Assembly (NCBI GenBank): GCA_028868715.1
Contig: JAGWUB010000002.1
Coordinates: forward strand, 211,388-275,387
Source: Patescibacteria group bacterium
Lineage (GTDB): Bacteria > Patescibacteriota > Minisyncoccia > Phycocordibacterales > UBA9973
DNA: 64,000 nucleotides
Reading direction: 5' to 3'
In this document: positions 6,935 through 55,079 of the stretch, piece after piece
How positions within the stretch are numbered: position 1 is the first letter of the stretch
Layout of the letters: each line of letters begins with the position of its first letter
The notes under the pieces: model-generated
Seen by the model: only the letters and a program-made list of their open reading frames with translations
Database searches by the model: none
What the model was told of the DNA's origin: nothing
Program-made: the position numbers and the translations under genes

Positions 6935-7939
6935 TTATTTTTGAGTCAGAGTATACCTATCCAAAATAGCTTCAAACATAAGTGGAGCGACGATAGTGGC
7001 ATCGGATTCAATCACAAACATCGGAGTGTCCTTGGTGAGTTTGTCCCAAGTAATTTTTTCATTTGGAGTTGCGCCGGAATATGAACCATAGGAAGTCGTG
7101 GAGTCTGAAATCTGGCAGAAGTATCCCCATGGACGCACTTCTTTCTTTAAGTCGTATTTTATAGAAGGCACCACACAGATCGGGAAGTCGCCAGAGATAC
7201 CACCACCGATTTGGAAAAATCCAAGCCCCGGACCGTCTTTAGAAAGTTTTGGATACATGTCATATAGATACATCATGTACTCTATCCCAGTTTTTACAAC
7301 ATTTGAATTTGTTTCTCCATCATTACAGGCGGCAGCAAACACATTTCCCAAGGTCGAATCCTCCCACCCCGGAACAACTATTGGCAAATTTTTCTTCGCT
7401 GCCTCAAGTAGCCAGCAATGTTCGGGGTTGCCTTCGTATTTTCCTTTTAAATCATCAGAAAGTAACATTTTATAAAAATATTCGTGCGGGAAAAAACGCT
7501 CGCCTTTAGTTTCCGCATCCTTCCAGTGTTTTAAAATAATCGGCTCAATAACTCGAAAAGCTTCCTCCTCGGGGATAGTAGTGTCCGTAACTCGGCGCTC
7601 TCCTCGGTTTAAAATTGCCTCATCGTCTTCTTTGGTGAAATATCTATAGTCTGGGTAGTCCTTATAATGACTGTGTGCAACTAATCTAAAAATCGATTCC
7701 TCTAGGTTGGCACCTGTGCAAGATATGGTATGAATTTTGTCCTCTTTGATCATAGCCGCCAAGGTCACCCCCATCTGGGCCGAAGACATGGCTCCGCCCA
7801 TAGCCAGCATCATTTTACCGCCATCATCCAAGTGTTTTTTGAAAGCGAGGGTAGCATCCTTCATCGCCCGTGAATTAAAATTGTGGAATAGTTTTTGAAA
7901 TAGGCCCAATATTGAAAGCTGATTCTTTTCGTTACTCAT
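6935..7939 (-). CDS. deoxyhypusine synthase-like protein (DHS/homospermidine-synthase family)
   Basis: GGAMSSAQMG and TGANLEE motifs of the DHS family. I chose the start at MSNEKN (7939) rather than the track's upstream ATG (8011). Confidence 0.7.
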   Translation of the reverse strand: MSNEKNQLSILGLFQKLFHNFNSRAMKDATLAFKKHLDDGGKMMLAMGGAMSSAQMGVTLAAMIKEDKIHTISCTGANLEESIFRLVAHSHYKDYPDYRYFTKEDDEAILNRGERRVTDTTIPEEEAFRVIEPIILKHWKDAETKGERFFPHEYFYKMLLSDDLKGKYEGNPEHCWLLEAAKKNLPIVVPGWEDSTLGNVFAAACNDGETNSNVVKTGIEYMMYLYDMYPKLSKDGPGLGFFQIGGGISGDFPICVVPSIKYDLKKEVRPWGYFCQISDSTTSYGSYSGATPNEKITWDKLTKDTPMFVIESDATIVAPLMFEAILDRYTLTQK

Positions 7940-8030
7940 ATGTACAGTATACAAAATTTCTGCCAAAAAAGGCAACCTAGCTATGAGGGTTGTTTGCCTT
8001 TTTGGGGCCAATATGCAATAATAGCCCTAT

Positions 8031-15105: not shown

Positions 15106-15149
15106 AAGTTAAGGTAAGTATATACTAAGTTAGTTCCTTTTAAAAATTA

Positions 15150-15328
15150 AGAGAAGTGATTGGGGAAACTGGTTAGATTCCAGTACAGTGCCGCTACGGT
15201 AAGTCCCGATACGCCAATTGGCGAATCGAGGAACAAGTCCGAATACCAATCATTTTACTAATCCCGAGCAGGATCCTCTCTCATTTTTTTGAGAGACCAC
15301 AAATTCTGCCCGAGCAGAATTTTTTTTA
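15150..15328 (+). promoter_or_regulatory. cobalamin (B12) riboswitch with intrinsic terminator expression platform
   Basis: 15162-15205 GGGGAAACTGGTTAGATTCCAGTACAGTGCCGCTACGGTAAG matches the cobalamin aptamer core. There is a B12-box-like AGTCCGAATACCAATC (15237-15252). A TCTCTC/GAGAGA hairpin is followed by the terminator TTCTGCCCGAGCAGAA+T9 (15304-15328), ending 3 nt before the ATG at 15332. Confidence 0.75.
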
Positions 15329-15331
15329 TTT

Positions 15332-15793
15332 ATGAGAAGAAATATAAAAATAATAATAGCCGTTATAATTTTCCTGTCACTTGGAATTTTAGGTTGGCAA
15401 AATATTCACAAGCAAACCCTTGGCAGGAGCGTTAGCAACGAACAGAAAAATTTTTTAGCAAAAAAATTTCTTGGTGAATCCGAGAATATTTTGCCAACCC
15501 AACTCAAAACCGCGGATATAGAAGTAAACGGTGTAAAATACCAAACTGAAATTTCACAAAACACCAGTGTATATGATTTTATGGATAAATTGCGAACTGA
15601 AGGAAAAATAAATTTTGAGGACAAAACCTATGTCGGGATGGGGAAATTTATTGAATCCATAAATGGGATTAAAAATACTGGAGACAAAAGCTGGATCTAC
15701 TATGTCAACGGCAAAGAGGCACAAATTGGGGTTTCAAATTATAAGATGAATCCGGGAGATGTCGTATCTTGGAAATATGAGAAGGGTTATTAA
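15332..15793 (+). CDS. signal-anchored DUF4430-family protein (putative cobalamin-binding beta-domain protein)
   Basis: 153 aa; N-terminal TM/signal; DUF4430-like pattern (YYVNGKEAQIGVSNYKMNPGDVVSWKY). It sits directly downstream of the B12 riboswitch. Confidence 0.65.
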   Translation: MRRNIKIIIAVIIFLSLGILGWQNIHKQTLGRSVSNEQKNFLAKKFLGESENILPTQLKTADIEVNGVKYQTEISQNTSVYDFMDKLRTEGKINFEDKTYVGMGKFIESINGIKNTGDKSWIYYVNGKEAQIGVSNYKMNPGDVVSWKYEKGY

Positions 15794-15807
15794 GTTGTTT
15801 AAAAAAT

Positions 15808-17631
15808 ATGAAAAAAATATTAAAAGTTTTAATGGTTGTTGGAATATTATTAGCCGGAGGAAATAATTTAGCTCACGCAGATCCTCAAAGTGTAAACCTG
15901 ACTGTTCGTGATGGAGCCACCATTGTCTTCTCTGGGGCTGTGACCCTACCTACGACCATAACCAGCTTAAATGATGCCACGAATACGCCACACACCATTA
16001 ATTCCAGTAGTGTGCTCTCGGTATTGGATAGTGCTGCCACAGGCACAGGTTCAAATTTTAGTATTTCCAATCTGACATATTTTAGCTCTTTTGATTCTCT
16101 TTATTTAAAGTGTATTACCGACCCAAGTGGAGAAAAATGTGACAACTGGCAATATGCTGTAAATGGCTCTGGTCCTAGTGTAGGTATGGATAAAAATATT
16201 TTAGCTGGTGGAGAAAATGTATATGTGTATTTTGGGCCACAAAATAAAATTACTTTGAGTTCAGGAAATATAAAAACCACGGATACTTTGACCGTCACCA
16301 CGCAAAACTATGATTATGTAAATAATGCTTGGATCACAAGAGCTGGAGTGACTGTGGGTTTGACCCAACCTGACCCAAGCAATCCTTCTACGCCAACTGA
16401 AGTTAAAACTAGTCCAGTAGACGCTAATGGTCAAGCAACCTTTTCATCAATTCCTGCTGGAAATTATAATGTCGGAGTAAAAGAAGATTATTATTTTCCA
16501 ACTGAAGCCCTTACTGTAGCTACTCCTCCACCAACATCGAGTGGAGGTGGAGGTGGAGGAGGTGGATACGTAGCGAGTGCTGGCAAAGTGCTCGGAGTCA
16601 CCACTACTAAGACCGGCTTTGATTTAAAACTGGCATCTGATTTTCTTGTAGCCCAACAAAAGCCAGATGGCTCCTTTGGCGAAGATCTGTATACTGACTG
16701 GGCGGGTATGGCTTTAGCATCTGGAAATTATCAGAATCAAGTAATAAAACTAATTAAACATTTTGAAGAATCCCCTATTGCTGGTACTAATCTTACAGAT
16801 TATGAGAGGCATGCGATGGCATTGATGGCTCTCGGTCTCAATCCTTATGATACCAATGGCACAAACTACATTAAAAAAATAGCCGATAGTTTTGACGGTA
16901 AACAATTTGGAGATCCAACTCAAAATAATGACGATATTTTTGCGCTAATAGTTTTACAAAATGCCGGATACGGACAAGATGAAAAAATGATAACTGATGA
17001 TGTATCTTTTATACTTAGTACCCAAAAACAAGATGGCTCTTGGGATGAAAGTATAGATATGACTGGAGCTGGCATAGAAGCTTTGTCCGCATTCAATAAA
17101 AGTGATCAAGTAAAAAGTTCACTAACTAAAGCAGAGGCATTTTTAAAACAAACAGAGGAGAGCAATGGAGGCTGGGGTGATAATGCATCTTCCACTGCGT
17201 GGGCCATCGAAGGCATATTGGCCTTGGGTGAAAAACCGGAAGATTGGAAAAAAAATGATCCGACAAATCCTGGTGTAAGTAATACTCCACTTGATTATCT
17301 GGCAACAATGCAAGATACAGATGGCGGAATAAAGGATGCTAATATACAAACTAAAATTTGGGAAACAACTTACGTGATTTCTGCCCTCTCTGGTAAAACT
17401 TGGAATCAAACTATGCAAACATTTGATAAACCTAAAGATGTTAGTAATGTTCCTGGTGCATCCCCTGAAATAAAACCTGCGACAAAACCTGTAGTAATGT
17501 TAAAAAAAATAACTCCAATCACATCCAAAACAACAATACATGAAATAACTTTACCGGAAACACAAAATCCACCAGCACTAATACCTAAACCAGAAAACTG
17601 GTTCTCCAGATTGATACATTTTATTTTTTAA
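15808..17631 (+). CDS. secreted protein with prenyltransferase/squalene-oxidase-type alpha-alpha toroid repeats (putative cobalamin-binding alpha-domain protein)
   Basis: Signal peptide; Gly8 linker; repeated QxxDGSW, GGWGDN and TAWAIEGILALG motifs characteristic of PF00432/PF13243 repeats; Pro/Thr-rich C-terminal tail. Confidence 0.65.
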   Translation: MKKILKVLMVVGILLAGGNNLAHADPQSVNLTVRDGATIVFSGAVTLPTTITSLNDATNTPHTINSSSVLSVLDSAATGTGSNFSISNLTYFSSFDSLYLKCITDPSGEKCDNWQYAVNGSGPSVGMDKNILAGGENVYVYFGPQNKITLSSGNIKTTDTLTVTTQNYDYVNNAWITRAGVTVGLTQPDPSNPSTPTEVKTSPVDANGQATFSSIPAGNYNVGVKEDYYFPTEALTVATPPPTSSGGGGGGGGYVASAGKVLGVTTTKTGFDLKLASDFLVAQQKPDGSFGEDLYTDWAGMALASGNYQNQVIKLIKHFEESPIAGTNLTDYERHAMALMALGLNPYDTNGTNYIKKIADSFDGKQFGDPTQNNDDIFALIVLQNAGYGQDEKMITDDVSFILSTQKQDGSWDESIDMTGAGIEALSAFNKSDQVKSSLTKAEAFLKQTEESNGGWGDNASSTAWAIEGILALGEKPEDWKKNDPTNPGVSNTPLDYLATMQDTDGGIKDANIQTKIWETTYVISALSGKTWNQTMQTFDKPKDVSNVPGASPEIKPATKPVVMLKKITPITSKTTIHEITLPETQNPPALIPKPENWFSRLIHFIF

Positions 17632-18235
17632 ACTCTACAACTTTGCCGGCTAAAATTTCTACTTTATCGGCTTTGCGCAGGTTTTTGATTTGAGATTTAG
17701 AAAGAATGTCGTAATGCTTTTGCTTGTCTAGGGCCTTGTCTATATACCACAGATCCCCTTCGGCGGTAGCCCAATTTCGACTGTTGAATTTATTTAAATT
17801 TAGTGGAGCAGAATATTTACGCAAGGTCTTTTGCCCATTATCTAAAAAATATTCGTGAAAATAAGACATCACGAGTTCACGGATGTTTTTATAGATCGGT
17901 TCCCGATATCGTAGTACAGCATGATTTGTCTTGGATAAAGCGCCCCAGTGGCCATTCTGCTTGAATGAAGTGATAACGTGGTCAAAGTCCCCTTTGGTGG
18001 TCTGTAGGTGTAGCACACATGGAGTAAACCCATGCAAGGAAAGAATGTATGCTCCTAGGATAGCCCCCTCAATGCAATGAGCGTTGTGAGTACGAACAAC
18101 CATAAGTGGTGACTTTAATGTATCCACTCCATTCTTCTCAAAATTAAACTGGAGTTCATTTAGAAAACTCTGCACCTTGGCTGGTGTATTTAGTTTGTGG
18201 AGTAATGCCTTTTCAGCTTTAGTGAACGCTAACAT
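17621..18235 (-). CDS. hypothetical protein, possibly papain/transglutaminase-like Cys-His fold
   Basis: 204 aa; candidate catalytic Cys in NAHCIEGAILG and downstream His residues. Weak assignment. Confidence 0.4.
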   Translation of the reverse strand: MLAFTKAEKALLHKLNTPAKVQSFLNELQFNFEKNGVDTLKSPLMVVRTHNAHCIEGAILGAYILSLHGFTPCVLHLQTTKGDFDHVITSFKQNGHWGALSKTNHAVLRYREPIYKNIRELVMSYFHEYFLDNGQKTLRKYSAPLNLNKFNSRNWATAEGDLWYIDKALDKQKHYDILSKSQIKNLRKADKVEILAGKVVEFKK

Positions 18236-20648: not shown

Positions 20649-21821
20649 TTACTGATACTGGATATAGCTAGGTTGAGGGTTTAGTTTTAACAAATCATTT
20701 GGAGTCATCATAGAAGTTCCAGGAGTCAGGATGTCATTTTTATAAAACAATTTAAACCCAGTAAACTGAACCGGCTGTGGGTAAATAAAATTCTTGTAAG
20801 TACCAATTTTTTTTGCCTTTCCACCCCAGCCATCCATATTCATCACTATTTGGACTTCGGGTAATGGTTTTATCTCTTTATAATTTGTTAACATGCCTTG
20901 AGTAAACCGATGCACGACTAAAATTTTTGGAGGTAAATTATTTTCTTTTACAATTTTTGCCAGATAGTTGGCAGCAAAGTTTACATCACTGGCGCTGAAC
21001 GTTCCTATAACTGTGCCCGGCTTGTTGCCAGTTTTCATTGAAAACTCTGGATCAATACCCAGATGTACATTTGGTAATTTTAAATATTTTTCAAAGACAG
21101 GAATTTCACTTTGGACGTTTGAAAGACCTACTTGAATATCTAGAAAAACAATTCCGTGTATTTTGTCTGCCATTTTTACTACCTTGTCTATCTCAGAACT
21201 CGGCATCCGCGCCCTATACTTACCATCCTTACCCGCACTTCCTTGAGCCACCACGGCGATATAGTGTAGTGCTGGAACAACTGGAGTGCTTGGATCAGCC
21301 ACTTCCCATTTTTTTACTTCGGTATTTAATTTTTGCAACATTACATCTTCACTATATTCTCCGAGAACTCCCATGTGCTTTGAGTATAGATTTCCGTAAT
21401 AGGCAACTATGCGATTAAAAGGCAAAAGAGCTCCGGCGTTAGGATATACGGTTTTTACTGGCCAGATATTTGGTAAAGCTATCTTGGCTGGCACCGTCAC
21501 CGTCGTAATCTTACCAGTCTTTTTGTCTTTGATGGTTTTAGTGGTTGGGCCCTTTGGTGGTGGGTTGTTTGCCAGTTCATTTAGCTTTTTATCATAAGTC
21601 GAAGTATTTAATGATGTAAGAACAGGGGTTAGGGGTTTGGTGGGAGTGGATACTTGGTCAGCATCAATTTCTCTCGGTGGGTAAGATATCGTATTACTAA
21701 AAAACTCTGGAAAAACAAAAAACAATACAGCTAGTAAAAATAGCGCCCCAGCAAAAAAAACCAAATGGCTTTTTTTGAATAGATTTTTTAGTCCAGACGT
21801 ATTCCTGTTTTGATCAGTCAT
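20649..21821 (-). CDS. membrane-anchored extracytoplasmic protein, hypothetical (possible TIM-barrel glycoside-hydrolase-like)
   Basis: N-terminal TM anchor; Pro/Thr-rich linker; ~280-aa globular domain with alternating beta/alpha pattern (IVAYYGNLYS, GIVFLDIQVG, HLGIDPEF). No confident family. Confidence 0.45.
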   Translation of the reverse strand: MTDQNRNTSGLKNLFKKSHLVFFAGALFLLAVLFFVFPEFFSNTISYPPREIDADQVSTPTKPLTPVLTSLNTSTYDKKLNELANNPPPKGPTTKTIKDKKTGKITTVTVPAKIALPNIWPVKTVYPNAGALLPFNRIVAYYGNLYSKHMGVLGEYSEDVMLQKLNTEVKKWEVADPSTPVVPALHYIAVVAQGSAGKDGKYRARMPSSEIDKVVKMADKIHGIVFLDIQVGLSNVQSEIPVFEKYLKLPNVHLGIDPEFSMKTGNKPGTVIGTFSASDVNFAANYLAKIVKENNLPPKILVVHRFTQGMLTNYKEIKPLPEVQIVMNMDGWGGKAKKIGTYKNFIYPQPVQFTGFKLFYKNDILTPGTSMMTPNDLLKLNPQPSYIQYQ

Positions 21822-24566: not shown

Positions 24567-25748
24567 TTATTTTTTATATAAATAAAAGAAATCTCGACTC
24601 GATCCATTGAAATACCTAGCTGGATGGTTGAGGCTTTGTAATTCTTTATTTAAAGGAATGGAATCGTAGGTACCTTTACTATTTTTATTAAAAACATAGA
24701 AATGCACTTGCGAAGGATTAATGTCGAGCTGTACGGCACTCAAAGCCCCAGCCATTCGAAGCGCGTCAGCGAGAGTCATTGGACTTAAATTGTTACCAGC
24801 CGCGTATAAAAGATTACCCATTTTATTTATCCCGATTCCAGAACGCCAAGTATAAGTTCCACGAACTAGCTCTTTTTTAGAGTGTAGTACGCGCCCAAGT
24901 ACTTTTTTATATTCTTCCGGGGTCATAGTTGTTCTGTCATTATTCTCGAGGATTAGTGGGCCATTTTGACGAGCAAAAACTACATTAGTGCCAAGGTTGT
25001 CACCCGTATAATTAAAAATTTTAATGGACCCATCAGAGTAGGTGGCAATGGTTCCTGCGTCAACCTGGAGAGGAGCGTAAGTTTTATCACCCACAACCAT
25101 TCCATATTTTCCATCAGCATAAAGAAAACCACCATTAAATGCACCAACCAAGGTATTGTTATCCGCAACACTCTGTGGGACAACTCCTGGTCCAGGGTTT
25201 CCAAGAGATCCTCCTGGCTCCTTAGTGCCAGCGATAGCATTTATCCCTAAAAGTTTAGTATTTATTTCTACGATGGAAACAATGGCGTATGATCTTTGTG
25301 GATCTGGACGAATAAAAGTAGTAGCCATGACTTCTTTATCTGGGAAAAGTGCCGAAGAAAGGTTGTGCCAAATTCCCTCACCTGAAAGTGGCTTAAAGGA
25401 TTCGTTTGGAATAATCGGTGTATGATCGAGTTCTGGTGAAGTAATTAAATTTTTACCTTGATCTAAAAATTGTGGTGACTCTGGTGCCTTAAATTTATAA
25501 ATAATGTTGTCAGCAATATCAGAAATAGAGAAAAAAATGTTTTCAATAAAAATAACTTGCTGATCTCCTATAAGTGGACGTATATAATTATCGGTGATAT
25601 CGGCGGCAGCTGGGGCATCAAATTTAACGAAAATACCCAAGCCGATAAGCAAGATGACTACTACCAATAGAACCCTTTTAAGCCATTTAATAAAGGTTCT
25701 AAAGCGAAAAGATCTTATTTTTTTTTGATCTAATTTTATATCCTGCAT
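24567..25748 (-). CDS. membrane-anchored phosphodiester-glycosidase-like protein (DUF2233/NAGPA-like)
   Basis: N-terminal TM; VGAFNGGFLYADG resembles the AINGGFF core of the phosphodiester glycosidase family. Confidence 0.5.
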   Translation of the reverse strand: MQDIKLDQKKIRSFRFRTFIKWLKRVLLVVVILLIGLGIFVKFDAPAAADITDNYIRPLIGDQQVIFIENIFFSISDIADNIIYKFKAPESPQFLDQGKNLITSPELDHTPIIPNESFKPLSGEGIWHNLSSALFPDKEVMATTFIRPDPQRSYAIVSIVEINTKLLGINAIAGTKEPGGSLGNPGPGVVPQSVADNNTLVGAFNGGFLYADGKYGMVVGDKTYAPLQVDAGTIATYSDGSIKIFNYTGDNLGTNVVFARQNGPLILENNDRTTMTPEEYKKVLGRVLHSKKELVRGTYTWRSGIGINKMGNLLYAAGNNLSPMTLADALRMAGALSAVQLDINPSQVHFYVFNKNSKGTYDSIPLNKELQSLNHPARYFNGSSRDFFYLYKK

Positions 25749-25754
25749 ATACTT

Positions 25755-26108
25755 TTACTTCTGAAAATAAAAAATAACCACGACACCTAAAATCAATAGA
25801 GCATACCCAATTAATTGTAGAGAGTCTAGCCGTTCATTTAATAGAAATACTGATACAATACTAACAATAATGAAACTCATAATCAACATGACTGGATTGG
25901 CTACAGACAGAGGCAAGGTTCGAAGAGCTAGTACAAAAAAAATAGCATTGATGGCAAAAAGACCACATCCGACTATAACCAAATAGTTCCGAGAGATTAT
26001 AGACAACAGTGACCCATGTAAAGCAACTCCGCGATTGGCGGCTAGTTTAAAAACGACACTTCCGGCCGAATTCAGTATGAAAGCAATTATCAGATATAAA
26101 ATTGACAT
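25755..26108 (-). CDS. 4-TM EamA/SMR-like small transporter (ArnE/ArnF-like lipid-linked sugar flippase candidate)
   Basis: 117 aa with 4 TM helices; SAGSVVFKLAA N-terminal signature of DMT/EamA half-transporters. Confidence 0.6.
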   Translation of the reverse strand: MSILYLIIAFILNSAGSVVFKLAANRGVALHGSLLSIISRNYLVIVGCGLFAINAIFFVLALRTLPLSVANPVMLIMSFIIVSIVSVFLLNERLDSLQLIGYALLILGVVVIFYFQK

Positions 26109-26131
26109 ATATAACGATTATTATAGCATTT

Positions 26132-26581
26132 TTAACCAATAAAGTGTTTAGCGAAGTCGTCTAATATATATATTAACTTAACTTTAAGAGAGTCGCTTTG
26201 GCTCGTTAGTCGTTTTACTTTTATAAAATCAGCGCCTATTTTTTTTGCAAAAAGGCCGTCAATCAATATTTTATCTCCAATAACCAGTAGGTTTGTTTTA
26301 AGCTGATCGGGTAAATTTTTTATTACTTTTTTATTCGGTTTTTTAAAGGACGAAATCAAAAGTGGAATATGTGTTTTATTTGCTATATCATTATCCCGAT
26401 CTGGTAAATGTTTGTTGGAAAATAAAAAAATGGAATTAGCCGTGGCCATCTCTTCAATTTTTTTTGCTACCAGCGGATCTAGGTCTGACCCACCGTCCGC
26501 GGTTATGGTGCCGTCAATATCGAGAATAATGGTTTTACGGGACCAAGCGGAGACATCTAATTCTTTAAAATACTTTTCCAT
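26132..26581 (-). CDS. HAD-superfamily phosphatase
   Basis: ILDIDGTIT (DxDGT motif I) and downstream GDKIL(I)DG motif IV. Confidence 0.7.
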   Translation of the reverse strand: MEKYFKELDVSAWSRKTIILDIDGTITADGGSDLDPLVAKKIEEMATANSIFLFSNKHLPDRDNDIANKTHIPLLISSFKKPNKKVIKNLPDQLKTNLLVIGDKILIDGLFAKKIGADFIKVKRLTSQSDSLKVKLIYILDDFAKHFIG

Positions 26582-26595
26582 TTATATAGTGACAA

Positions 26596-27639
26596 TTAAA
26601 AAAATAATTTAGCCAGCCCAAGTATGCCCTGCTTCCAAGGCACTCTATGGGTCACCCCTGATTTATTTGCGAAACTATCTAAATTTTCAAGATACCAATC
26701 GTAATTTCGCACTAGGGCTTGCTTGTTTGAATATTTAGGATTATAACCGAGAATTTTTTCAGCCTTTTCAATAGACACAAATGAATCTTTGGAAGCCGTT
26801 TCATATACCCATTTATAAAGTGGTGACAAATGTAAGGCTTCTAATATCCGCAGAGTCCAGATCACCGGCGCAGCTGGTAAGCCAATTATTTTTTTACCAA
26901 ATCCAGCCTTATCTAGCACTGCCTGATAATCTTCTTTCATGGTGGTAAATTCCTTGGCGCCAATATTGAAAGTATCATTTACAATTTTGTTATCCAAAGT
27001 AGCACAAAGATAAATGGCATCACATAGATCTTCCACATCTAGAAGCTGATATCTGTTCCTACCATTGCCGATCATGGGAAAATTTTTGCCGTCTTTGGCC
27101 CAATCGTAAAACAAGGCAAATACTCCAAGTCTTTCTTTGCCGATGAATGATTTGGGTCGAATAATCGGCACACACATTCCTTTGGTTCTATATTCTAAAC
27201 AAACATTTTCTGCCAGAATCTTGGCCTCGCCATATGGACCGACGCCAATCAAGGTATCCTCTTCTACTAGGGGGTGGTGGTCAGGGATGCCGTAAACTGC
27301 AGTAGAAGAAATGTGGATCACTCTCGCCACTTTGTGTGCATAGGCGCTTTCTAAAATGTTTCTAGTACCTTCTACGTCGGTAGAAAATATTTCTTCTTTG
27401 GAATAAAGTGGCAGAGCCGCAGCTGTATGCACCACGATATCTATGCCCTCCATGCACTTGTCTACTATTTGTTTATTTCTGATGTCGCCTACTACGACTG
27501 TGATCTTGTCCGTTTGGTCCTTTTCAGGATAATCAAATACATCCTTATCCAAGGAAACAACCGTGTGCCCTTTGTCTATGGCATAACGAATAAAATTAAT
27601 ACCCAAGAAACCCGATCCACCAGTTACAAGAAATTTCAT
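26596..27639 (-). CDS. NAD-dependent epimerase/dehydratase (extended SDR)
   Basis: N-terminal VTGGSGFLG Rossmann motif; 347 aa extended-SDR pattern. Confidence 0.85.
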
Positions 27640-27648
27640 ATAGCTTAA

Positions 27649-28491
27649 TTATATATGTAAATAAATAATAAAAAACATCGTCAGAATCCAAGCCAGACTA
27701 CTTAAAAAAATTACTTTATCGGCGATAATTACCTTCTCTGGATATTCGGCTTTGTGAGTAGTGAAAACTAAAAATAAGTAGCGGACAATGCCTAGGATTA
27801 CCAAAAAGATTGAGAAAACAGCTACGTTGGAATTTAAAACCAGTACACTATATAAACTATAAGCGATAATCACCAAAGTGGCAGAAATGATAAGCATGGC
27901 ATTGAGAAACTCCGGAGTATATTGCAAGAGAACAATTCTCTTGTCGTCTTGACTAAATTCAGCTAGCCTTTTGGCGACAATCAAAAACAAGGAAATGAAG
28001 ATTATACAAAGCAAAAGCCAGTTGGAGATGGGCACCATAGCGGCAATTCCACCGACCATAATTCGGATAAAATAAAACGTGGAAACGAGCAAAATATCCA
28101 AGATAGCAATATGCTTAAAATATTTTGAGTACAGAACGTTTAACAGAAAATATAATACCATCAACCAAAATATTTGCGGGATAAAAAAATAAATTACAGC
28201 AACAACAACGATCAGTAAGCTACAGAGTAAAATAATTGCGGACTTGATGGAAACTGCGCCAGAGGCGATCGGCCGATTTTTTTTAGTGCTGTGTTTTTGA
28301 TCTTGCTCCTTATCAAAAATATCGTTCAATATATAGACCGAACTGGCGGTGAGACAAAAAACGATAAAAGCCAAGGTCACAAGCGTAAGCTTACTATAAA
28401 CAAAAAAATCTTTCGCAAAAAAGAGCGGTACAAATATAAAAAAATTCTTAATCCAGCTATAAGGTCGCATTAATCTCAACATTGGTGGCAT
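27649..28491 (-). CDS. UbiA-family polyprenyl-phosphate glycosyl(phosphoribosyl)transferase (DPPR-synthase-like)
   Basis: 8-9 TM helices; NDIFDKEQD (NDxxDxxxD) followed by RPIASGAVS, as in decaprenyl-phosphate phosphoribosyltransferase homologs. Confidence 0.75.
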   Translation of the reverse strand: MPPMLRLMRPYSWIKNFFIFVPLFFAKDFFVYSKLTLVTLAFIVFCLTASSVYILNDIFDKEQDQKHSTKKNRPIASGAVSIKSAIILLCSLLIVVVAVIYFFIPQIFWLMVLYFLLNVLYSKYFKHIAILDILLVSTFYFIRIMVGGIAAMVPISNWLLLCIIFISLFLIVAKRLAEFSQDDKRIVLLQYTPEFLNAMLIISATLVIIAYSLYSVLVLNSNVAVFSIFLVILGIVRYLFLVFTTHKAEYPEKVIIADKVIFLSSLAWILTMFFIIYLHI

Positions 28492-28517: not shown

Positions 28518-28940
28518 CTAATTGAAATTAATCAAAAAGCTATACATGCCCATGCCGCACACACCACGAAGCGGCACACCAGCCACTGGGGTACCGATAT
28601 CTATTTCAGTTTCTCCGGTTTGGGGCAGGATTTTTTGGAAACCGATGGAATGAATTGCTAGAGATGAAGAACAATCATAAGAGCCGTTGGTTTTGACGAT
28701 AAGTTTTGTCGGAATGCCAGCCTTGGCAGTGGAGACTTTGGGTGAATAACCGCCTCCGGCAGCAATAGTGACATATTGAATGCCATCTTTTATTTGAATA
28801 TTGGCTACCGAACCAGCACTACTGCCACCACCACTTGATCCTAAAATAAAAACAAAACCCACCACTGCCAAGATCACAATTGTCGCCACGATGAAAGGAG
28901 TTTTATTTGTTCCGTTAGATGTTTTTTTATTTTTACTCAT
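28518..28940 (-). CDS. membrane-anchored cupredoxin-like (Cupredoxin_1) metal-binding protein
   Basis: N-terminal TM; IQIKDGIQYVTIAAGGGYSPKVSTAKAGIPTKLIVKTNG cupredoxin_1-like beta-sandwich; C-terminal Cys/Met-rich CGMGMY. Confidence 0.55.
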   Translation of the reverse strand: MSKNKKTSNGTNKTPFIVATIVILAVVGFVFILGSSGGGSSAGSVANIQIKDGIQYVTIAAGGGYSPKVSTAKAGIPTKLIVKTNGSYDCSSSLAIHSIGFQKILPQTGETEIDIGTPVAGVPLRGVCGMGMYSFLINFN

Positions 28941-28942
28941 AA

Positions 28943-29956
28943 TTAAATATTGAATAGTGGGTTGATAATACCGAGTCCAGCCAGCCCAGCCAAGAGCGCA
29001 AATAATCCAAAGCCGATAACTACGACCCCAGCTGATTTAAAGAATAGTGGCGCATATTTTCCGTGAGCGATTGAAGCCGAGCCAAATGATAGCAACAAAA
29101 GCATCGGCAAGGTTCCTAGAGCAAAAGCAAGCATGATGAGAAGACCAATAGTAAAGGATCCACTTCCAAGCGCCGCAAACTGCATTGATTGAGTAAATCC
29201 ACAGGGTAAGAAGAATGTACCGAAGCCCACTAGAAGTGGCGCAAAGGTTTTATGTTCTACCTTTCTAAAAAAATTAAAAATCCCCGATGGCAGTGTGATT
29301 TTATTTTTAGCAAATACTCCGACTAAATTTAAACCTAAATACAACATAATAAGTGATGCAACAATTCCTAATATTGCTGTAGTCGTAAATGTAGAATTAA
29401 TAGGTATGGCGCTACCCACCACCCCGAGAACTCCCCCTAATACCGCAAAGCTTACTAATCTACCACTATGAAAGAGAAAGAAAGTTTTGGTGTCACTCTC
29501 ATTGTCTTGTGATACTTTGGCTGAAAGTGAGAGCACCAGCCCGCCGACAATGGCCAAGCAGGAAGAAACTGAAGCAATGAGTCCAATGATAAATGCGGTT
29601 GCTGGTGTAGTCTTGCCACCGATGCCCAAGTTGAGAATACCTGATTTTTGTAACAGGAAAAATAAAAGTAAAAATCCAAGCCCAATGGGTATAGCTTTCC
29701 AGGTGGTGTTGTCACTCTCTTTTTCTGAAATAATTTTTTCTACTGAAAGAGTGTATCCGTTTGGTCTTATTTTTTCGCTCAAAATACCTGCCATTTCTTC
29801 TGGACTTTTTTCACTATCAACTTCTACTTCCACGACTTCCTTATTTAGATCAACCTGAACATTTTTAACAAAATCTTGCTCTTGCAAAACATCTTCGATT
29901 AAGATTTTACATGCTGCACAATGCGTACCCGAAACATGAAATGTATATTTTTTCAT
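28943..29956 (-). CDS. HMA (heavy-metal-associated) domain fused to a two-Cys polytopic membrane domain (DsbD/CcdA-like)
   Basis: N-terminal SGTHCAACK metal-binding motif in a ferredoxin-like domain. The membrane domain has conserved Cys in SVSSCLAIVGG and FFLPCGFTQ. Confidence 0.6.
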   Translation of the reverse strand: MKKYTFHVSGTHCAACKILIEDVLQEQDFVKNVQVDLNKEVVEVEVDSEKSPEEMAGILSEKIRPNGYTLSVEKIISEKESDNTTWKAIPIGLGFLLLFFLLQKSGILNLGIGGKTTPATAFIIGLIASVSSCLAIVGGLVLSLSAKVSQDNESDTKTFFLFHSGRLVSFAVLGGVLGVVGSAIPINSTFTTTAILGIVASLIMLYLGLNLVGVFAKNKITLPSGIFNFFRKVEHKTFAPLLVGFGTFFLPCGFTQSMQFAALGSGSFTIGLLIMLAFALGTLPMLLLLSFGSASIAHGKYAPLFFKSAGVVVIGFGLFALLAGLAGLGIINPLFNI

Positions 29957-29959
29957 AAA

Positions 29960-32332
29960 TTATAATTTTATACTTTTAATTCTAAGTGAATTGGAAACTA
30001 CGGACACGCTCGACATCGCCATCGCGAATCCAGCAAACACCGGCGAAAGTAGCCAGCCAAATATTGGATAAAAAAGCCCAGCTGCTAGTGGAATTCCAAC
30101 AATGTTATATATAAAAGCCCAGAAAAGATTCTGCTTGATTCCACGCATGGTTATTTTGGAAAGTTTAATTGCTTTGACGAGCTTGGAAATATCTCCACCC
30201 AAAAGAGTAATCCCGGCTGACTCAATAGCCACGTCGGTGCCTGTACCCATAGCGATACCCACATCAGCTTGTGCTAATGCTGGAGCGTCGTTCACTCCGT
30301 CCCCCGCCATAGCCACAATGTGTCCCTCCGTTTGTAATTTTTTAATCTTCAATAATTTATCTGCCGGCAAGACATGCGCCATGACATCATCAATACCCAC
30401 AAGTGATGCAATATATTTGGCAGCCCTTTCATCGTCTCCAGTAACCATAATTACTTTGATTCCGAGTTTATGTAGGTTGTCCACTGCTTGCTTGGATTCT
30501 GCCTTTATTTCGTCAGCTACCATCACAAACCCAAGCACTTTCTCGCTCGTAGCCAGGATAACTGGTGTCTTACCTTCCGCGGTAAATTGTTCTAATTTGG
30601 CAGTATCGAAAGAAAGTTTTAAGTCTTGTATTAGTTTTGCGTTCCCAACAAAATACTCTATTCCATCGATTGACCCTTTTAGACCCTTGCCTTGTATTCC
30701 CTCAAAATTTGAAGTATCTACTATTTTTATTTTTTTATCTTGGGCGTAGTTAACAATGGCATGAGCAATTGGATGCTCAGATTTTTTTTCTAAGGATGTC
30801 AAGATTGAAATAAATTTTTCGTCCGACAAGTCTGAAGAATTTTGAATATCAACCAGTGTAGGTTTGCCGATAGTAATCGTGCCAGTTTTATCTACAATGA
30901 CTGTATCTACTTTATGAAGTTTTTCCAAGGTTGCCGCATCTTTGATCAAAATTCCCTCGCGAGCACCCTTGCCGACTCCAACTATAATTGCCGTCGGCGT
31001 GGCCAGCCCGAGCGCACAAGGACAAGCAATCACCAGTACGCCGACAAAAGAAACCAAGCCGAATGAGAGTGCTTGTGAAAATCCTAGTGGCCCCGCCCCA
31101 ACAAGCAACCATATTCCGAGAGTTGCAAAAGCGATTACCAATACAATCGGCACAAAGATACTTGAAATTTTATCAGCTAAGGCCTGTATGGGGGCTTTAC
31201 TTCCTTGCGCATCTTCTACCATCTGTATGATATGAGCAAGAAGTGTTTCCGCGCCGACTTTGGTACCTTTGAAGGTAAATGCGCCACTGGTATTGATAGT
31301 ACCCGCCACCACACTATCACCAACTTTTTTGGAAGCAGGCATTGGTTCACCGGTCACCATTGATTCATCGACAAAAGATGCCCCTTCGGTAATTATTCCA
31401 TCTACTGGAATTTTACTTCCGGGTTTTACAATAATTAAGTCGCCGTGCACCACTTGATCAATTGGGATCTCAATTTCTTTCCCACCTCTGGTGACTAGAG
31501 CGGTTTTGGCCTGAAGATTAAGTAATTTTTCGATGGCATCGCCAGTTTTTAATTTAGATCTTGCTTCCAGATATTTTCCGAGAGCAATAAAAGTAATGAC
31601 CACAATAGTCACATCATAATAAGTCTGCGTGACATTAATAAAGGGGGCCAGTGATTTTTCAAATGCAGTAACAATAAAACTATATAAAAATGCTGTGATG
31701 GTGCCGATGCCGATCAAGGTATCCATATTTGCTTTACCGTAGCGGAGAAAACGATAGAAGCCAAGTAGGTATGGCTTACCGACAACAAAGAGTGTGTAGG
31801 CCGCCATTATTGGTAATAAGTGATGAAAAAATTCGCCTAGGTTGTAGCTCATTTCTGGCACAGCTTTGTACTCTGCTAAAATGTCCCAAGCCATAATAAA
31901 GATACTTATCACTGCAAGTGGAATAGCCGAGATAACTTTGTTCCGCATATCTTTAATTTCTGCCAACTTTTCAGCCTTGGATTGATTGAGCCCCAAGTGT
32001 GCAGCATGCTCGTCCTCACTCATACCCATTTCGCTCGCCGACATATTCATATTGTGTGCGTCTGATGCAACTAGAGAATACCCTAGTGGCTCTAACTTTT
32101 TATTGAAAGATTCTGGGTTGGTTTTACTTTGATCAAAAGATATTTTTGCATTTTCAGTGCCATTATTAACAGCAATAGATTCTACGCCGTCAATTTTTTT
32201 GACAGTTCGCTCGATAATGCTGGCGCATGAAGCACAATGCATACCTTTTACTTTAAAGGTTTTTGTATACATATTATTTTCTCTTAAGTTTATAAACCTT
32301 AAGTATCTCGGTAGTAGCTTTACCTGTGTCAC
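29960..32332 (-). CDS. copA: copper-translocating P1B-type ATPase
   Basis: N-terminal HMA (GMHCASCAS), [25 protein letters not shown]. The start may be at the internal MYTKTF (32272). Confidence 0.93.
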
Positions 32333-32537
32333 CCTTTTTCATTTGGTCTACGACGCAATGACTAAGATGACCCTCCATAAGAGTGTCTTCAACATTTGAA
32401 AGACCTTGCTTGACCGCCGATGTTTGGGTGATGACATCAATGCAGTAAGTGCCACCATCTATCATTTTTTGAAGCCCACGAACTTGACCCTCAATTATTT
32501 TGAGGTGTCTGATTAATTTATCTTTATTGGTTTTCAT
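32274..32537 (-). CDS. csoR: CsoR/RcnR-family metal-sensing transcriptional repressor
   Basis: 87 aa; the CsoR Cu(I) ligand triad aligns as Cys (YCIDVIT), His and Cys (HLSHCV), with helical bundle pattern. Confidence 0.85.
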
Positions 32538-52053: not shown

Positions 52054-52130
52054 TGGTGCGCGTGCCACGATTCGAACGTGGGACCCTCGAGGTATAAGCT
52101 CGATGCTCTAACCAACTGAGCTACACGCGC
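52054..52130 (-). tRNA. tRNA-Ile (anticodon UAU), CCA encoded
   Basis: GCGCGTGTAGCTCAGTTGGTTAGAGCATCGAGCTTATACCTCGAGGGTCCCACGTTCGAATCGTGGCACGCGCACCA. Anticodon stem TCGAG/CTCGA, loop CTTATAC. Confidence 0.8.
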
Positions 52131-54174: not shown

Positions 54175-54618
54175 ATGGCTAACTATGCGGAAAATCGAAA
54201 AGCTCGTTTCAACTATGAAATTTTAGAAAAGTACGAATCCGGTATTGAACTTTTGGGGACCGAAGTTAAATCTGTGAGAAGTGGACAGATGTCCTTGGAT
54301 GGTTCTTTTGTAATTGTCCGCGGAGGTGAAGTATTTTTAATAAATGCCAACATTCCACCATATCAAATAAAAAATGCTCCAAAGGACTACGACCCACTAC
54401 GCAATAGAAAACTTTTACTAACTAAAAAAGAAATAAAAGAACTCACTGGCAGTGAGAAAACAAACTTGACGATTGTGCCTCTTTCAGTGTATAATAAAGC
54501 TAGAAAAATCAAAGTAAGCATTGCTTTAGTTAAAGGCAAGAAAAAATTTGATAAACGTGAGACTCTCAAAAAACGCGATACTGATCGCGAGATCAGAAGA
54601 GAATATCGGGGAAAATAA
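54175..54618 (+). CDS. smpB: SsrA-binding protein SmpB
   Basis: RKARFNYEILEKYESGIELLGTEVKS...LLLTKKEI SmpB pattern; basic C-terminal tail. Confidence 0.9.
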   Translation: MANYAENRKARFNYEILEKYESGIELLGTEVKSVRSGQMSLDGSFVIVRGGEVFLINANIPPYQIKNAPKDYDPLRNRKLLLTKKEIKELTGSEKTNLTIVPLSVYNKARKIKVSIALVKGKKKFDKRETLKKRDTDREIRREYRGK

Positions 54619-54640: not shown

Positions 54641-55037
54641 GGGGATGCAAGGCATAGACAGTAGGCCTCTTGTTATTGATGCATACCGAGCATGGACGTA
54701 ATCTCGTAAAAATTCGTCTAAATGTTAATTGCAAAATTAGCTTCTAAGGTGAAAGCTTCAGTTTCTCCATACTTCGGTATGAATGAATTCGCTTTCGCTC
54801 TAGCTTAACTTAGGTTCGGCTAGTGTCTCTCTTATAGACTTCCGATATATAAGATGGGGCAACATATTATCGGGATAGTTCCCTCGCCTGTTCCGACGAG
54901 AGAGCAAAACAAAGGAACTCGATTAAAAAATATTTGGCTCGCTTAAGAATTTTTTAATTAAAACCAAAAAGCGTGCTACGTATGTAGACTTCTTTACAAT
55001 AACCTTCTGCACGGGGATTCAATTTCCCCCATCTCCA
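54641..55037 (+). ncRNA. ssrA: tmRNA (SsrA), one-piece
   Basis: Starts GGGGATG... and ends with a tRNA-like T-arm GGGGA-TTCAATT-TCCCC plus acceptor CATCTCC-A. Acceptor pairing gives the G3-U70 alanine identity pair. Candidate tag frame ...GMNEFAFALA* ends TAA around 54829-54831. Lies 23 nt after smpB. Confidence 0.8.
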
Positions 55038-55079
55038 CTATTTATAGCCCAAAGGATAATTTTTTGATATATTTACATC

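Follow-up and report, generated by a model that had tools for sequence, protein, structure and literature searches.

Five consecutive open reading frames on the minus strand were confirmed at positions 24567-28491 of the window, by which we mean the whole 64-kb stretch of DNA analyzed, and they are separated by intergenic gaps of 6-23 nt (Table 1). The GC content of these genes (0.34-0.40) is the same as that of the window, unrelated copper-resistance genes are also present in the same-strand run, and scans of the cluster for promoters and terminators yielded matches at chance level only. In the public record, three of the five genes are named "hypothetical protein", the UbiA and SDR genes carry generic family names, and no pathway-specific name is given.

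Table 1. Genes at the locus, in minus-strand order, with predicted or proposed roles.
Gene product	Position	Strand	Length and remarks
UbiA protein, PPPRS/DPPRS-type polyprenyl-phosphate 5-phosphoribosyltransferase (predicted)	27649..28491	-	280 aa, ~8-9 TM helices
NAD-dependent extended SDR with GalE-like catalytic motifs; proposed lipid-linked ribofuranose epimerase	26596..27639	-	347 aa
HAD-IIIA (YqeG/PGP-phosphatase-type) phosphatase; proposed 5'-phosphatase of polyprenyl-P-ribose-5-P	26132..26581	-	149 aa
4-TM ArnE/ArnF/SMR-like protein; proposed lipid-linked pentose flippase	25755..26108	-	117 aa
P393, membrane-anchored NAGPA/DUF2233-fold protein; adjacent, probably outside the pathway	24567..25748	-	393 aa

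The UbiA protein (MDE2399976.1, "UbiA family prenyltransferase") was assigned by Pfam to the generic UbiA family (8.6e-25), and the NCBIfam models of decaprenyl-phosphate phosphoribosyltransferase (DPPRS) matched it with 197.3 bits (NF008978, 3e-58), 191.4 bits (NF008977, 2.3e-56), and 159.4 bits (NF008976), vs. at most 46.2 bits for the models of quinone (UbiA, MenA-type), haem (CyoE), chlorophyll (ChlG), and GGGP (GGGPS) enzymes. The two highest scores are below the curated equivalog cut-offs (207 for NF008978 and 234 for NF008977), and this near miss explains the generic public name. Its best relative in the PDB is Rv3806c (8j8j, 2.3e-41; 33% identity over 280 columns), and the runner-up is chlorophyll synthase (1.4e-5). 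The protein contains the loop II motif NDxxDxxxD (N56-D57-xx-D60-xxx-D64) and the R...E residues of loop IV (R175 and E178 in KRLAE, 174-178), which are required or conserved in both Rv3806c and ORF15 of Citrobacter youngae (PMC11127046), and its RPIASG (73-78) aligns with RPIAAG of Rv3806c. Judged from its sequence, the protein is clearly of the predicted polyprenyl-phosphate 5-phosphoribosyltransferase type, as the sequence-only reading had proposed, and in neither model scores nor PDB matches was it grouped with the quinone or haem prenyltransferases.

The SDR belongs to the Pfam Epimerase family (1.2e-39), and no NCBIfam equivalog was matched. Its motifs are TGGSGFLG (6-13), S111-S-T113, and Y136-xxx-K140; the Asp-Glu pair of the 4,6-dehydratases is lacking, and the structural model displays a generic GalE/RmlB fold. 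These features agree with the NAD-dependent extended-SDR epimerase that was initially read from the sequence. Among CPR, Clostridia, Chloroflexota, and Actinomycetota, this SDR retains 74-87% identity, and haloarchaeal homologs still show 52-54%; the family is conserved far more strongly than its cluster partners: its identity remains at 74-79% while that of the partner UbiA falls to 30-39%. A further homolog (33% identity, 2e-65) belongs to a rhizobial candidate system (Rhizobium sp. CCGE531) listed by Kelly et al. A deoxyhypusine-synthase-like gene is another recurrent neighbor of this SDR.

The HAD protein, likewise expected to be a phosphatase, scored above the cut-off of PF09419 (25.2 vs. 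20.4 bits) and below that of the YqeG-type HAD-IIIA model TIGR01668 (3.3e-13), and all catalytic motifs are present (DxDGT at D21-x-D23-G-T, SN, K, and GDxxxxD). No significant similarity was detected between it and the PRP domain of the UbiA fusion protein in one of the compared loci (L060); the characterized PRP domain belongs to a different HAD subfamily. The 4-TM protein gave sub-threshold matches to TMEM234 (2.4e-6), ArnE (4.6e-6; 26.8 bits vs. a family cut-off of 92), ArnF (1.6e-5), EamA (3.5e-5), and SMR, and its homolog in Rhizobium sp. CCGE531, annotated as "SMR family transporter", follows the SDR gene there (27% identity, 6e-8). It had been described as ArnE/ArnF-like or Rv3789-like; the former likeness was retained, and the latter was not, no GtrA match being obtained in the Pfam and NCBIfam profile searches. 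It is best regarded as an ArnE/F-like putative transporter of the kind found in three-component systems (see below).

The arrangement of these genes is conserved. UbiA, SDR, HAD, and 4-TM genes occur together in all four CPR genomes that were found via the UbiA protein, and the UbiA-SDR pair recurs in Omnitrophota, Planctomycetota (Planctomycetia), Streptomyces (in the order SDR-UbiA), rhizobial symbiosis plasmids, and haloarchaea. The SDR gene lies directly downstream of the UbiA gene in seven loci (L001-L003, L012, L021, L024, and L059), and in a Spirochaetes MAG (L018) a close SDR homolog is situated four genes upstream of UbiA. The HAD gene is syntenic with UbiA-SDR in L001-L003, L059, L069-L071, L073, L075, L078, L088, L090, L096, L123, L130, and L146, and synteny of the 4-TM gene extends over CPR loci and Clostridium (L004, L040, and L054). 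In haloarchaea, a DPPRS gene, the SDR gene, and two GT-C genes are clustered, and the rhizobial pSym plasmids (pNGR234a and pRCCGE531b) hold the series SDR-SMR-GMC oxidoreductase-GT-C-SDR-HAD::UbiA, with SDR identities of 33-35%. DprE1-like genes accompany UbiA in two loci of other lineages (L041 and L052). Among the 37 SDR-centered metagenome loci with enough flanking sequence, a UbiA gene was present within four genes in 13, a HAD gene in 8, and a 4-TM gene in 6. The other 24 are without an adjacent UbiA gene, as are homologs of 76-79% identity from three long genomic contigs, of which one is a complete Serpentinicella genome, one comes from an Anaerolineae MAG, and one from a metagenome assembly; the tie of the SDR to UbiA is therefore frequent and not obligatory.

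The fifth protein, P393, had been taken for a surface phosphodiester-glycosidase-like member of the cluster. No profile was matched directly in hmmscan, its homologs at 45-67% identity carry PF09992, and its AlphaFold model (pLDDT 80) matches DUF2233 (3ohg, 7e-11) and NAGPA (6u11, 4e-10), which upholds the proposed fold. Membership in the cluster was not upheld: the gene order with P393 after the cluster is restricted to the closest relatives (L001 and L069), and homologs in two further loci (L149 and L150) are found in unrelated contexts, one of them beside an LCP-family gene. P393 represents a common CPR protein that elsewhere has no linkage to the cluster, and it is most likely an independent envelope enzyme.

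Based on homology and gene order, the four genes at 25755-28491 probably account for the cytoplasmic part of a pathway to a polyprenyl-phosphate-pentofuranose donor. In the first and best-supported step, the UbiA-type enzyme would transfer 5-phosphoribose from PRPP to polyprenyl phosphate. The HAD phosphatase would then remove the 5'-phosphate to give polyprenyl-P-ribofuranose, and the SDR, using bound NAD, would epimerize one ring hydroxyl via a keto intermediate, resulting in xylofuranose if C3 is the target or arabinofuranose if it is C2. The ArnE/F-like 4-TM protein, probably as a dimer, may flip the lipid-linked sugar across the membrane to its outer face. Finally, a GT-C transferase encoded elsewhere (AftB-like in CPR relatives) would attach the pentofuranose to a glycan or protein of the cell surface. 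The donor pathway suggested by the sequence-only reading is thus supported by family assignment, by gene order across phyla, and by a characterized precedent (Kelly et al., 2024, PMC11127046). The candidate pentoses are plain Ribf, Araf, or Xylf. Arabinose is not the only option, and in the one system of this kind whose stand-alone SDR has been characterized, the product is xylofuranose. That the SDR is a single-enzyme, DprE1/DprE2-independent 2'-epimerase producing polyprenyl-phospho-arabinofuranose appears unlikely on present evidence; if it were so, DPA-like donors, and hence Araf-containing surface glycans, would occur widely among bacteria and archaea, the episymbiotic CPR among them.

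Other explanations were considered for the first enzyme and for the SDR. The generic Pfam assignment and public name would suit a conventional quinone, haem O, or ether-lipid prenyltransferase with unrelated neighbors, but the gap between the DPPRS models (159-197 bits) and those for UbiA, MenA-type, CyoE, ChlG, and GGGPS (15-46 bits), together with the PDB match to Rv3806c (2e-41 vs. 1e-5 or worse for others), makes this reading extremely improbable. It could also be proposed that the pathway consists of UbiA, HAD, and 4-TM proteins only, with plain polyprenyl-P-ribofuranose as the donor, and that the SDR is a housekeeping nucleotide-sugar or other oxidoreductase often located among envelope genes. 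The close homologs without adjacent UbiA in Serpentinicella, the Anaerolineae MAG, and the metagenome assembly, the recurrent deoxyhypusine-synthase-like neighbor, the constancy of the SDR relative to its UbiA partner, and the generic fold all point in this direction. However, the SDR gene is directly beside a PPPRS gene in CPR, Omnitrophota, Planctomycetota, Actinomycetota, rhizobia, and haloarchaea, far above chance, and the stand-alone SDR of Citrobacter was genetically shown to epimerize a lipid-linked pentose; a role outside the pathway is accordingly considered rather unlikely.

The consumer of the donor leaves room for another alternative. No GT-C gene was found in the 64-kb window, in which an MFS transporter is the sole large multi-TM protein, and neither the AftB-like profile nor any of five further GT-C neighbors taken from related loci matched the six-frame translation of the window. 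The product might be an end-point membrane glycolipid or an intermediate on the cytoplasmic face rather than a GT-C donor, which would account for the absence of a nearby transferase gene, and the closest relatives (L001 and L069) likewise have no GT-C gene next to the cluster. This is quite improbable, since the window covers only 64 kb of a 288-kb contig, the conserved genes of the cluster include one for a flippase-like protein, and the corresponding clusters of two more distant CPR relatives (L002 and L059) contain or adjoin genes of a multi-TM, AftB-like GT-C family; in the PDB this family matched nothing but the arabinosyltransferase AftB (1e-9, with the DD motif aligned).

This tiny-genome bacterium belongs to the CPR (Patescibacteria), which have minimal biosynthetic capacity and a host-attached life and about whose surface chemistry very little is known. 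Lipid-anchored pentose pathways are known from mycobacterial arabinan and from Citrobacter O-antigen side chains, and to our knowledge this kind of pathway has not yet been described in CPR. Surface decoration with a pentofuranose at the expense of PRPP would offer a concrete starting point for identifying a surface glycan of CPR and, possibly, determinants of host attachment. The known range of the pentofuranose system reported in 2024 would grow to include CPR through this cluster and archaea through the UbiA-SDR pairing of haloarchaeal loci; moreover, an unusually conserved and unnamed SDR family is singled out as a candidate lipid-linked pentose epimerase.

The three-component pentofuranose system is composed of a PPPRS, a phosphatase, a small flippase, a GT-C transferase, and an optional SDR epimerase (Kelly et al., 2024, PMC11127046). 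In Citrobacter youngae O1/O2, these are ORF12 (GT-C/GT136), ORF13 (SDR), ORF14 (ArnE/F-like transporter), and ORF15 (HAD-PRP::UbiA PPPRS); ORF15 makes polyprenyl-P-Ribf from PRPP, and ORF13 (MH325884.1), a C3 epimerase, alone turns the Ribf side chain to Xylf (PMC11127046). In common with this system, the window has a PPPRS-type UbiA protein with NDxxDxxxD and the R/E residues, a predicted phosphatase of the HAD superfamily, and a putative 4-TM transporter resembling ArnE/F. It also encodes an extended SDR that stands alone and contains TGxxGxxG and YxxxK; the likeness to ORF13 consists of these shared SDR motifs. Homologs of both the window SDR and the 4-TM protein are encoded in Rhizobium sp. 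CCGE531, at a locus that Kelly et al. name as a candidate system. In contrast to Citrobacter, the phosphatase of the window is a separate gene of the YqeG/PGP-phosphatase subfamily and not a fused PRP domain, no GT-C gene is nearby, and the CPR bacterium that carries the cluster has neither an outer membrane nor an O antigen.

The sequence-only reading had likened the cluster to the mycobacterial DPA pathway (Rv3806c, Rv3807c, DprE1/DprE2, Rv3789, and the Aft/Emb GT-C enzymes). The logic is indeed the same (PRPP to lipid-P-ribose-5-P, dephosphorylation, epimerization, flipping, and GT-C transfer), Rv3806c and the UbiA protein of the window are homologous (33% identity, 2e-41), and the GT-C of CPR relatives is AftB-like, but the other parts differ. 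The window contains no homologs of DprE1 (FAD_binding_4), GMC oxidase, GtrA, or PHP proteins; the FAD oxidase DprE1 and the classical-SDR DprE2 are both missing, and the only SDR is of the extended type, which would need to perform both redox half-reactions. The phosphatase is a HAD protein, not PAP2 (Rv3807c), and the 4-TM protein is ArnE/F-like, not GtrA (Rv3789). Compared with ArnE/ArnF, the undecaprenyl-phosphate-L-Ara4N flippase of E. coli and Salmonella, the 4-TM protein has the same topology, size (~110-120 aa), and association with a lipid-linked pentose, but it is encoded by a single gene instead of a heterodimer pair, its scores are far below the family cut-offs, and the donor proposed here would be derived from PRPP, not from a UDP-sugar. 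The uncharacterized rhizobial and haloarchaeal clusters have the same SDR family beside a PPPRS, and in rhizobia an SMR-like gene follows that SDR; they differ in their GT-C genes and extra redox enzymes, and in haloarchaea a PHP-domain protein occupies the place expected for the phosphatase. Because homologs of DprE1, DprE2, PAP2, and GtrA are all absent from the window, the DprE1/DprE2 route is the poorer match, and the three-component system of Kelly et al. (2024) is the right comparator for this cluster.

The five consecutive minus-strand ORFs that the sequence-only reading placed at 24567-28491 are all present, separated by gaps of 6-23 nt, and they form part of a longer same-strand run in which the gaps are equally short. 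A copper-resistance set adjoins the cluster upstream, comprising an 87-aa CsoR-like protein, a CopA P-type ATPase, an HMA+DsbD_2 membrane protein and a cupredoxin-like protein (gaps of 2-26 nt), so that what looks like one operon combines genes of unrelated function. Downstream, the run includes a 97-aa membrane protein with three transmembrane segments (3-TM), a LUD-domain protein, an ABC transporter and a membrane-anchored 390-aa protein; the 97-aa and 390-aa proteins are without family assignment and are "hypothetical" in the public record. A scan for promoters and terminators gave counts at chance level. In the public record, the UbiA protein is named "UbiA family prenyltransferase" and the extended SDR "NAD(P)-dependent oxidoreductase", and the HAD protein, the 4-TM protein and the 393-aa membrane-anchored protein (P393) are all named "hypothetical protein".

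Coordinates of the cluster genes and of other features in the window
Feature	Positions	Strand
Deoxyhypusine synthase homolog	6935-8011	
Cobalamin riboswitch region	15114-17631	
204-aa protein, vasohibin-family match	17621-18235	
390-aa membrane-anchored protein	20649-21821	minus
97-aa 3-TM protein, just downstream of P393	24267-24560	minus
P393	24567-25748	minus
117-aa 4-TM protein	25755-26108	minus
HAD protein	26132-26581	minus
Extended SDR	26596-27639	minus
UbiA protein	27649-28491	minus
Copper-resistance set	28518-32537	minus
tRNA-Ile	52054-52130	
smpB-like ORF	54175-54618	
tmRNA	54641-55040	

The UbiA protein scored 197, 191 and 159 bits against the three NCBIfam models for decaprenyl-phosphate phosphoribosyltransferase (DPPRS); all remaining UbiA-type models, those for 4-hydroxybenzoate prenyltransferase, haem O synthase, chlorophyll synthase, GGGP synthases and EboC, gave 15-46 bits. 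Its best score lies narrowly under the trusted cut-off (197.3 vs 207), which accounts for the generic public name. Among solved structures, the best match was the mycobacterial enzyme Rv3806c (2.3e-41, nearly full length, 33% identity), followed by the chlorophyll synthase (1.4e-5) and DGGGP synthase (9e-4) families. The protein contains N56-D57-xx-D60-xxx-D64, RPIASG and R175/E178, which match residues assigned to the active site, by mutagenesis or structure, in Rv3806c and in ORF15 of Citrobacter youngae. Based on the model and structure scores, the protein is of the proposed DPPR-synthase type and does not cluster with quinone or haem prenyltransferases.

The HAD protein is above the Pfam cut-off for PF09419, the phosphatidylglycerophosphate-phosphatase family, resembles YqeG-type HAD-IIIA enzymes and retains all four HAD motifs. 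A PF09419-family phosphatase, acting on the phosphomonoester head group of a lipid, is a sensible analogue for it; it shares no similarity with the PRP domain that proteobacterial systems carry as a fusion with UbiA. The 4-TM protein gave weak matches to the ArnE, ArnF, EamA and SMR models and no match to the GtrA models.

Conservation of the gene arrangement was surveyed around both UbiA and the SDR. The UbiA-centered survey drew on species-representative genomes and covered 59 loci. All of the nearest relatives belonged to CPR bacteria, namely Paceibacterota (68%), Parcubacteria (60%), Minisyncoccia (55%) and Peregrinibacteria (53%), and in all four of these genomes the HAD and 4-TM genes come after UbiA-SDR, in one order or the other. 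The UbiA-SDR pair was also found in Omnitrophota and Planctomycetia, and a close SDR homolog lies four genes upstream of UbiA in a Spirochaetes MAG. In other lineages, the partner of UbiA was another kind of HAD (PF12710), a GtrA protein, a DprE1-like FAD enzyme or a GT-C-like protein. The SDR-centered survey covered 80 metagenome loci, 37 of which had flanks of 2.5 kb or more on each side; among these 37, a UbiA homolog occurred within four genes of the SDR in 13, the HAD in eight and the 4-TM gene in six. Among annotated records, a Streptomyces plasmid carries SDR-UbiA, and haloarchaeal replicons (a plasmid of Haloterrigena sp. KLK7 and two others) carry side by side a DPPRS gene, the SDR (52-54% identity) and two GT-C genes, together with a PHP-domain protein, which suggests a lipid-linked pentofuranose pathway in archaea. 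The rhizobial symbiosis plasmids pRCCGE531b and pNGR234a (in the latter near nodS/nodU) carry a cluster of an SDR, an SMR transporter, a hypothetical gene, a GMC oxidoreductase, a multi-TM protein of ~660 aa, a second SDR and HAD::UbiA. The SDR and SMR genes of this cluster are homologous to the window SDR (2e-65) and 4-TM protein (6e-8), and the presence of two distinct redox modules suggests that a lipid-linked pentose is modified in two ways.

The SDR contains TGGSGFLG, S111-S-T113 and Y136-xxx-K140 and has no Asp-Glu pair of the 4,6-dehydratases, and thus resembles a GalE-type epimerase or oxidoreductase. A fold search with its predicted model (pLDDT 82.6) recovered the generic GalE/RmlB fold and nothing more specific, with no hint of the substrate. 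Its 21-residue C-terminal tail is specific to this SDR family and is kept in CPR bacteria, rhizobia and haloarchaea; the last helix is amphipathic and could seat the protein at the membrane. The family is strongly conserved: identity is 74-87% across CPR, Clostridia, Chloroflexota and Actinomycetota, and the best 120 database matches, from the same four groups, are all at least 75% identical. An exhaustive search (E up to 1e-30) gave 429 representatives of 50%-identity clusters, of which the best was 62% identical, followed by 55%, ~50% and values down into the 30s.

This conservation raises the alternative that the SDR functions independently, outside the lipid-linked pentose pathway. The SDR is 74-79% identical to the window protein even where its UbiA partner is only 30-39% identical, and the family often lacks a UbiA neighbor: close homologs occur with no adjoining UbiA on three long genomic contigs, one of them a complete genome. 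Other neighbors include a DUF368/VCA0040-like membrane protein in Serpentinicella and, in one group of loci, a deoxyhypusine-synthase-like gene directly after the SDR. Recent horizontal transfer as the source of the conservation finds no support in the window, where GC and GC3 are ordinary and the cluster's composition bears no trace of recent transfer into this genome. Therefore, an independent function of the SDR stays alive as a less probable explanation. On the side of the pathway stand the UbiA assignment, the conserved arrangement and the Citrobacter youngae precedent, by which the pathway interpretation of the sequence-only reading is borne out in substance: the cluster probably encodes a polyprenyl-phosphate pentofuranose donor pathway, in which a polyprenyl-phosphate 5-phosphoribosyltransferase, the HAD phosphatase, the SDR epimerase and an ArnE/F-like flippase would act in that order.

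The fifth gene was weighed as a further member of the pathway. P393 gave no match in a direct profile search, its homologs carry PF09992, and its predicted model matches DUF2233 and NAGPA structures, so that the description as a surface phosphodiester-glycosidase-like protein holds. This family, which CPR bacteria carry very commonly, lies downstream of the cluster only in the closest relatives; at two other CPR loci, the homologs are in unrelated neighborhoods away from UbiA clusters, once beside an LCP-family ligase gene. P393 was accordingly rejected as a pathway member and is treated as an independent envelope enzyme; it is unlikely to be an unconventional user of the glycosyl-phosphodiester donor.

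No GT-C transferase was found in the 64-kb window by TM counting, Pfam, an AftB-like profile or phmmer with the GT-C genes of six related loci, the profile and these genes being run against the six-frame translation, and ~4.7 kb beyond one window end held no relevant gene. The consumer of the donor is thus encoded elsewhere in the genome or absent. Two CPR relatives (L002 and L059) carry a multi-TM gene of 530-570 aa inside or beside the cluster, which forms one family with neighbors from four other loci; in the PDB, this family matches only the arabinosyltransferase AftB (1e-9), and the alignment includes the GT-C "DD" motif. The closest relatives (L001 and L069) have no GT-C adjoining the cluster.

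Several other features of the window were recorded. The deoxyhypusine synthase homolog (PF01916, 6.5e-36), here in a bacterium, belongs to the same family as the recurrent SDR neighbor elsewhere. A cobalamin riboswitch (42 bits, 3e-7) precedes the genes of a 153-aa protein and of a secreted 607-aa protein, the latter combining DUF4430 with a squalene-hopene-cyclase-like repeat domain, and the three are probably a B12 capture or uptake unit. The 204-aa protein scores 25.2 bits against the Pfam vasohibin family, barely over the cut-off of 24; this family is known mainly from eukaryotes. The tRNA-Ile has the anticodon TAT (UAU), an uncommon means of reading AUA codons in bacteria. The tmRNA (124 bits), with the smpB-like ORF just upstream, is ordinary.

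The cluster offers a concrete handle on the surface glycans of CPR bacteria, and also on an unnamed, hyper-conserved SDR family. A literature search found no paper connecting CPR/Patescibacteria with DPPR synthase; in the study of Kelly et al. (2024; PMC11127046), CPR bacteria are unmentioned and archaea appear in the reference list only. In the Citrobacter youngae system described there, the HAD::UbiA protein ORF15 makes polyprenyl-P-ribofuranose from PRPP, the single GalE-like SDR ORF13 converts the ribofuranose side chain to xylofuranose, its C3 epimer, the ArnE/F-like ORF14 is put forward as the exporter, and the GT-C ORF12 (GT136) attaches the sugar on the extracytoplasmic side; DprE1/E2 homologs go with arabinofuranose-containing glycans (Kelly et al., 2024). 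Rhizobium sp. CCGE531, to whose locus the window SDR and 4-TM proteins are homologous, is among their candidates. The proposed likeness to the mycobacterial decaprenyl-phospho-arabinose route stands for the first enzyme and the logic, but not for the remaining parts, since DprE1, DprE2, PAP2 and GtrA homologs are absent across the whole 64-kb window, and a single extended SDR is present instead of DprE1/E2. A separate YqeG-type HAD takes the place of the fused PRP or PAP2 phosphatase of known pentofuranose systems. From this comparison, the window therefore holds a member of the kind of system described by Kelly et al. (2024), one that is, as judged from its sequences, built of partly non-orthologous parts.
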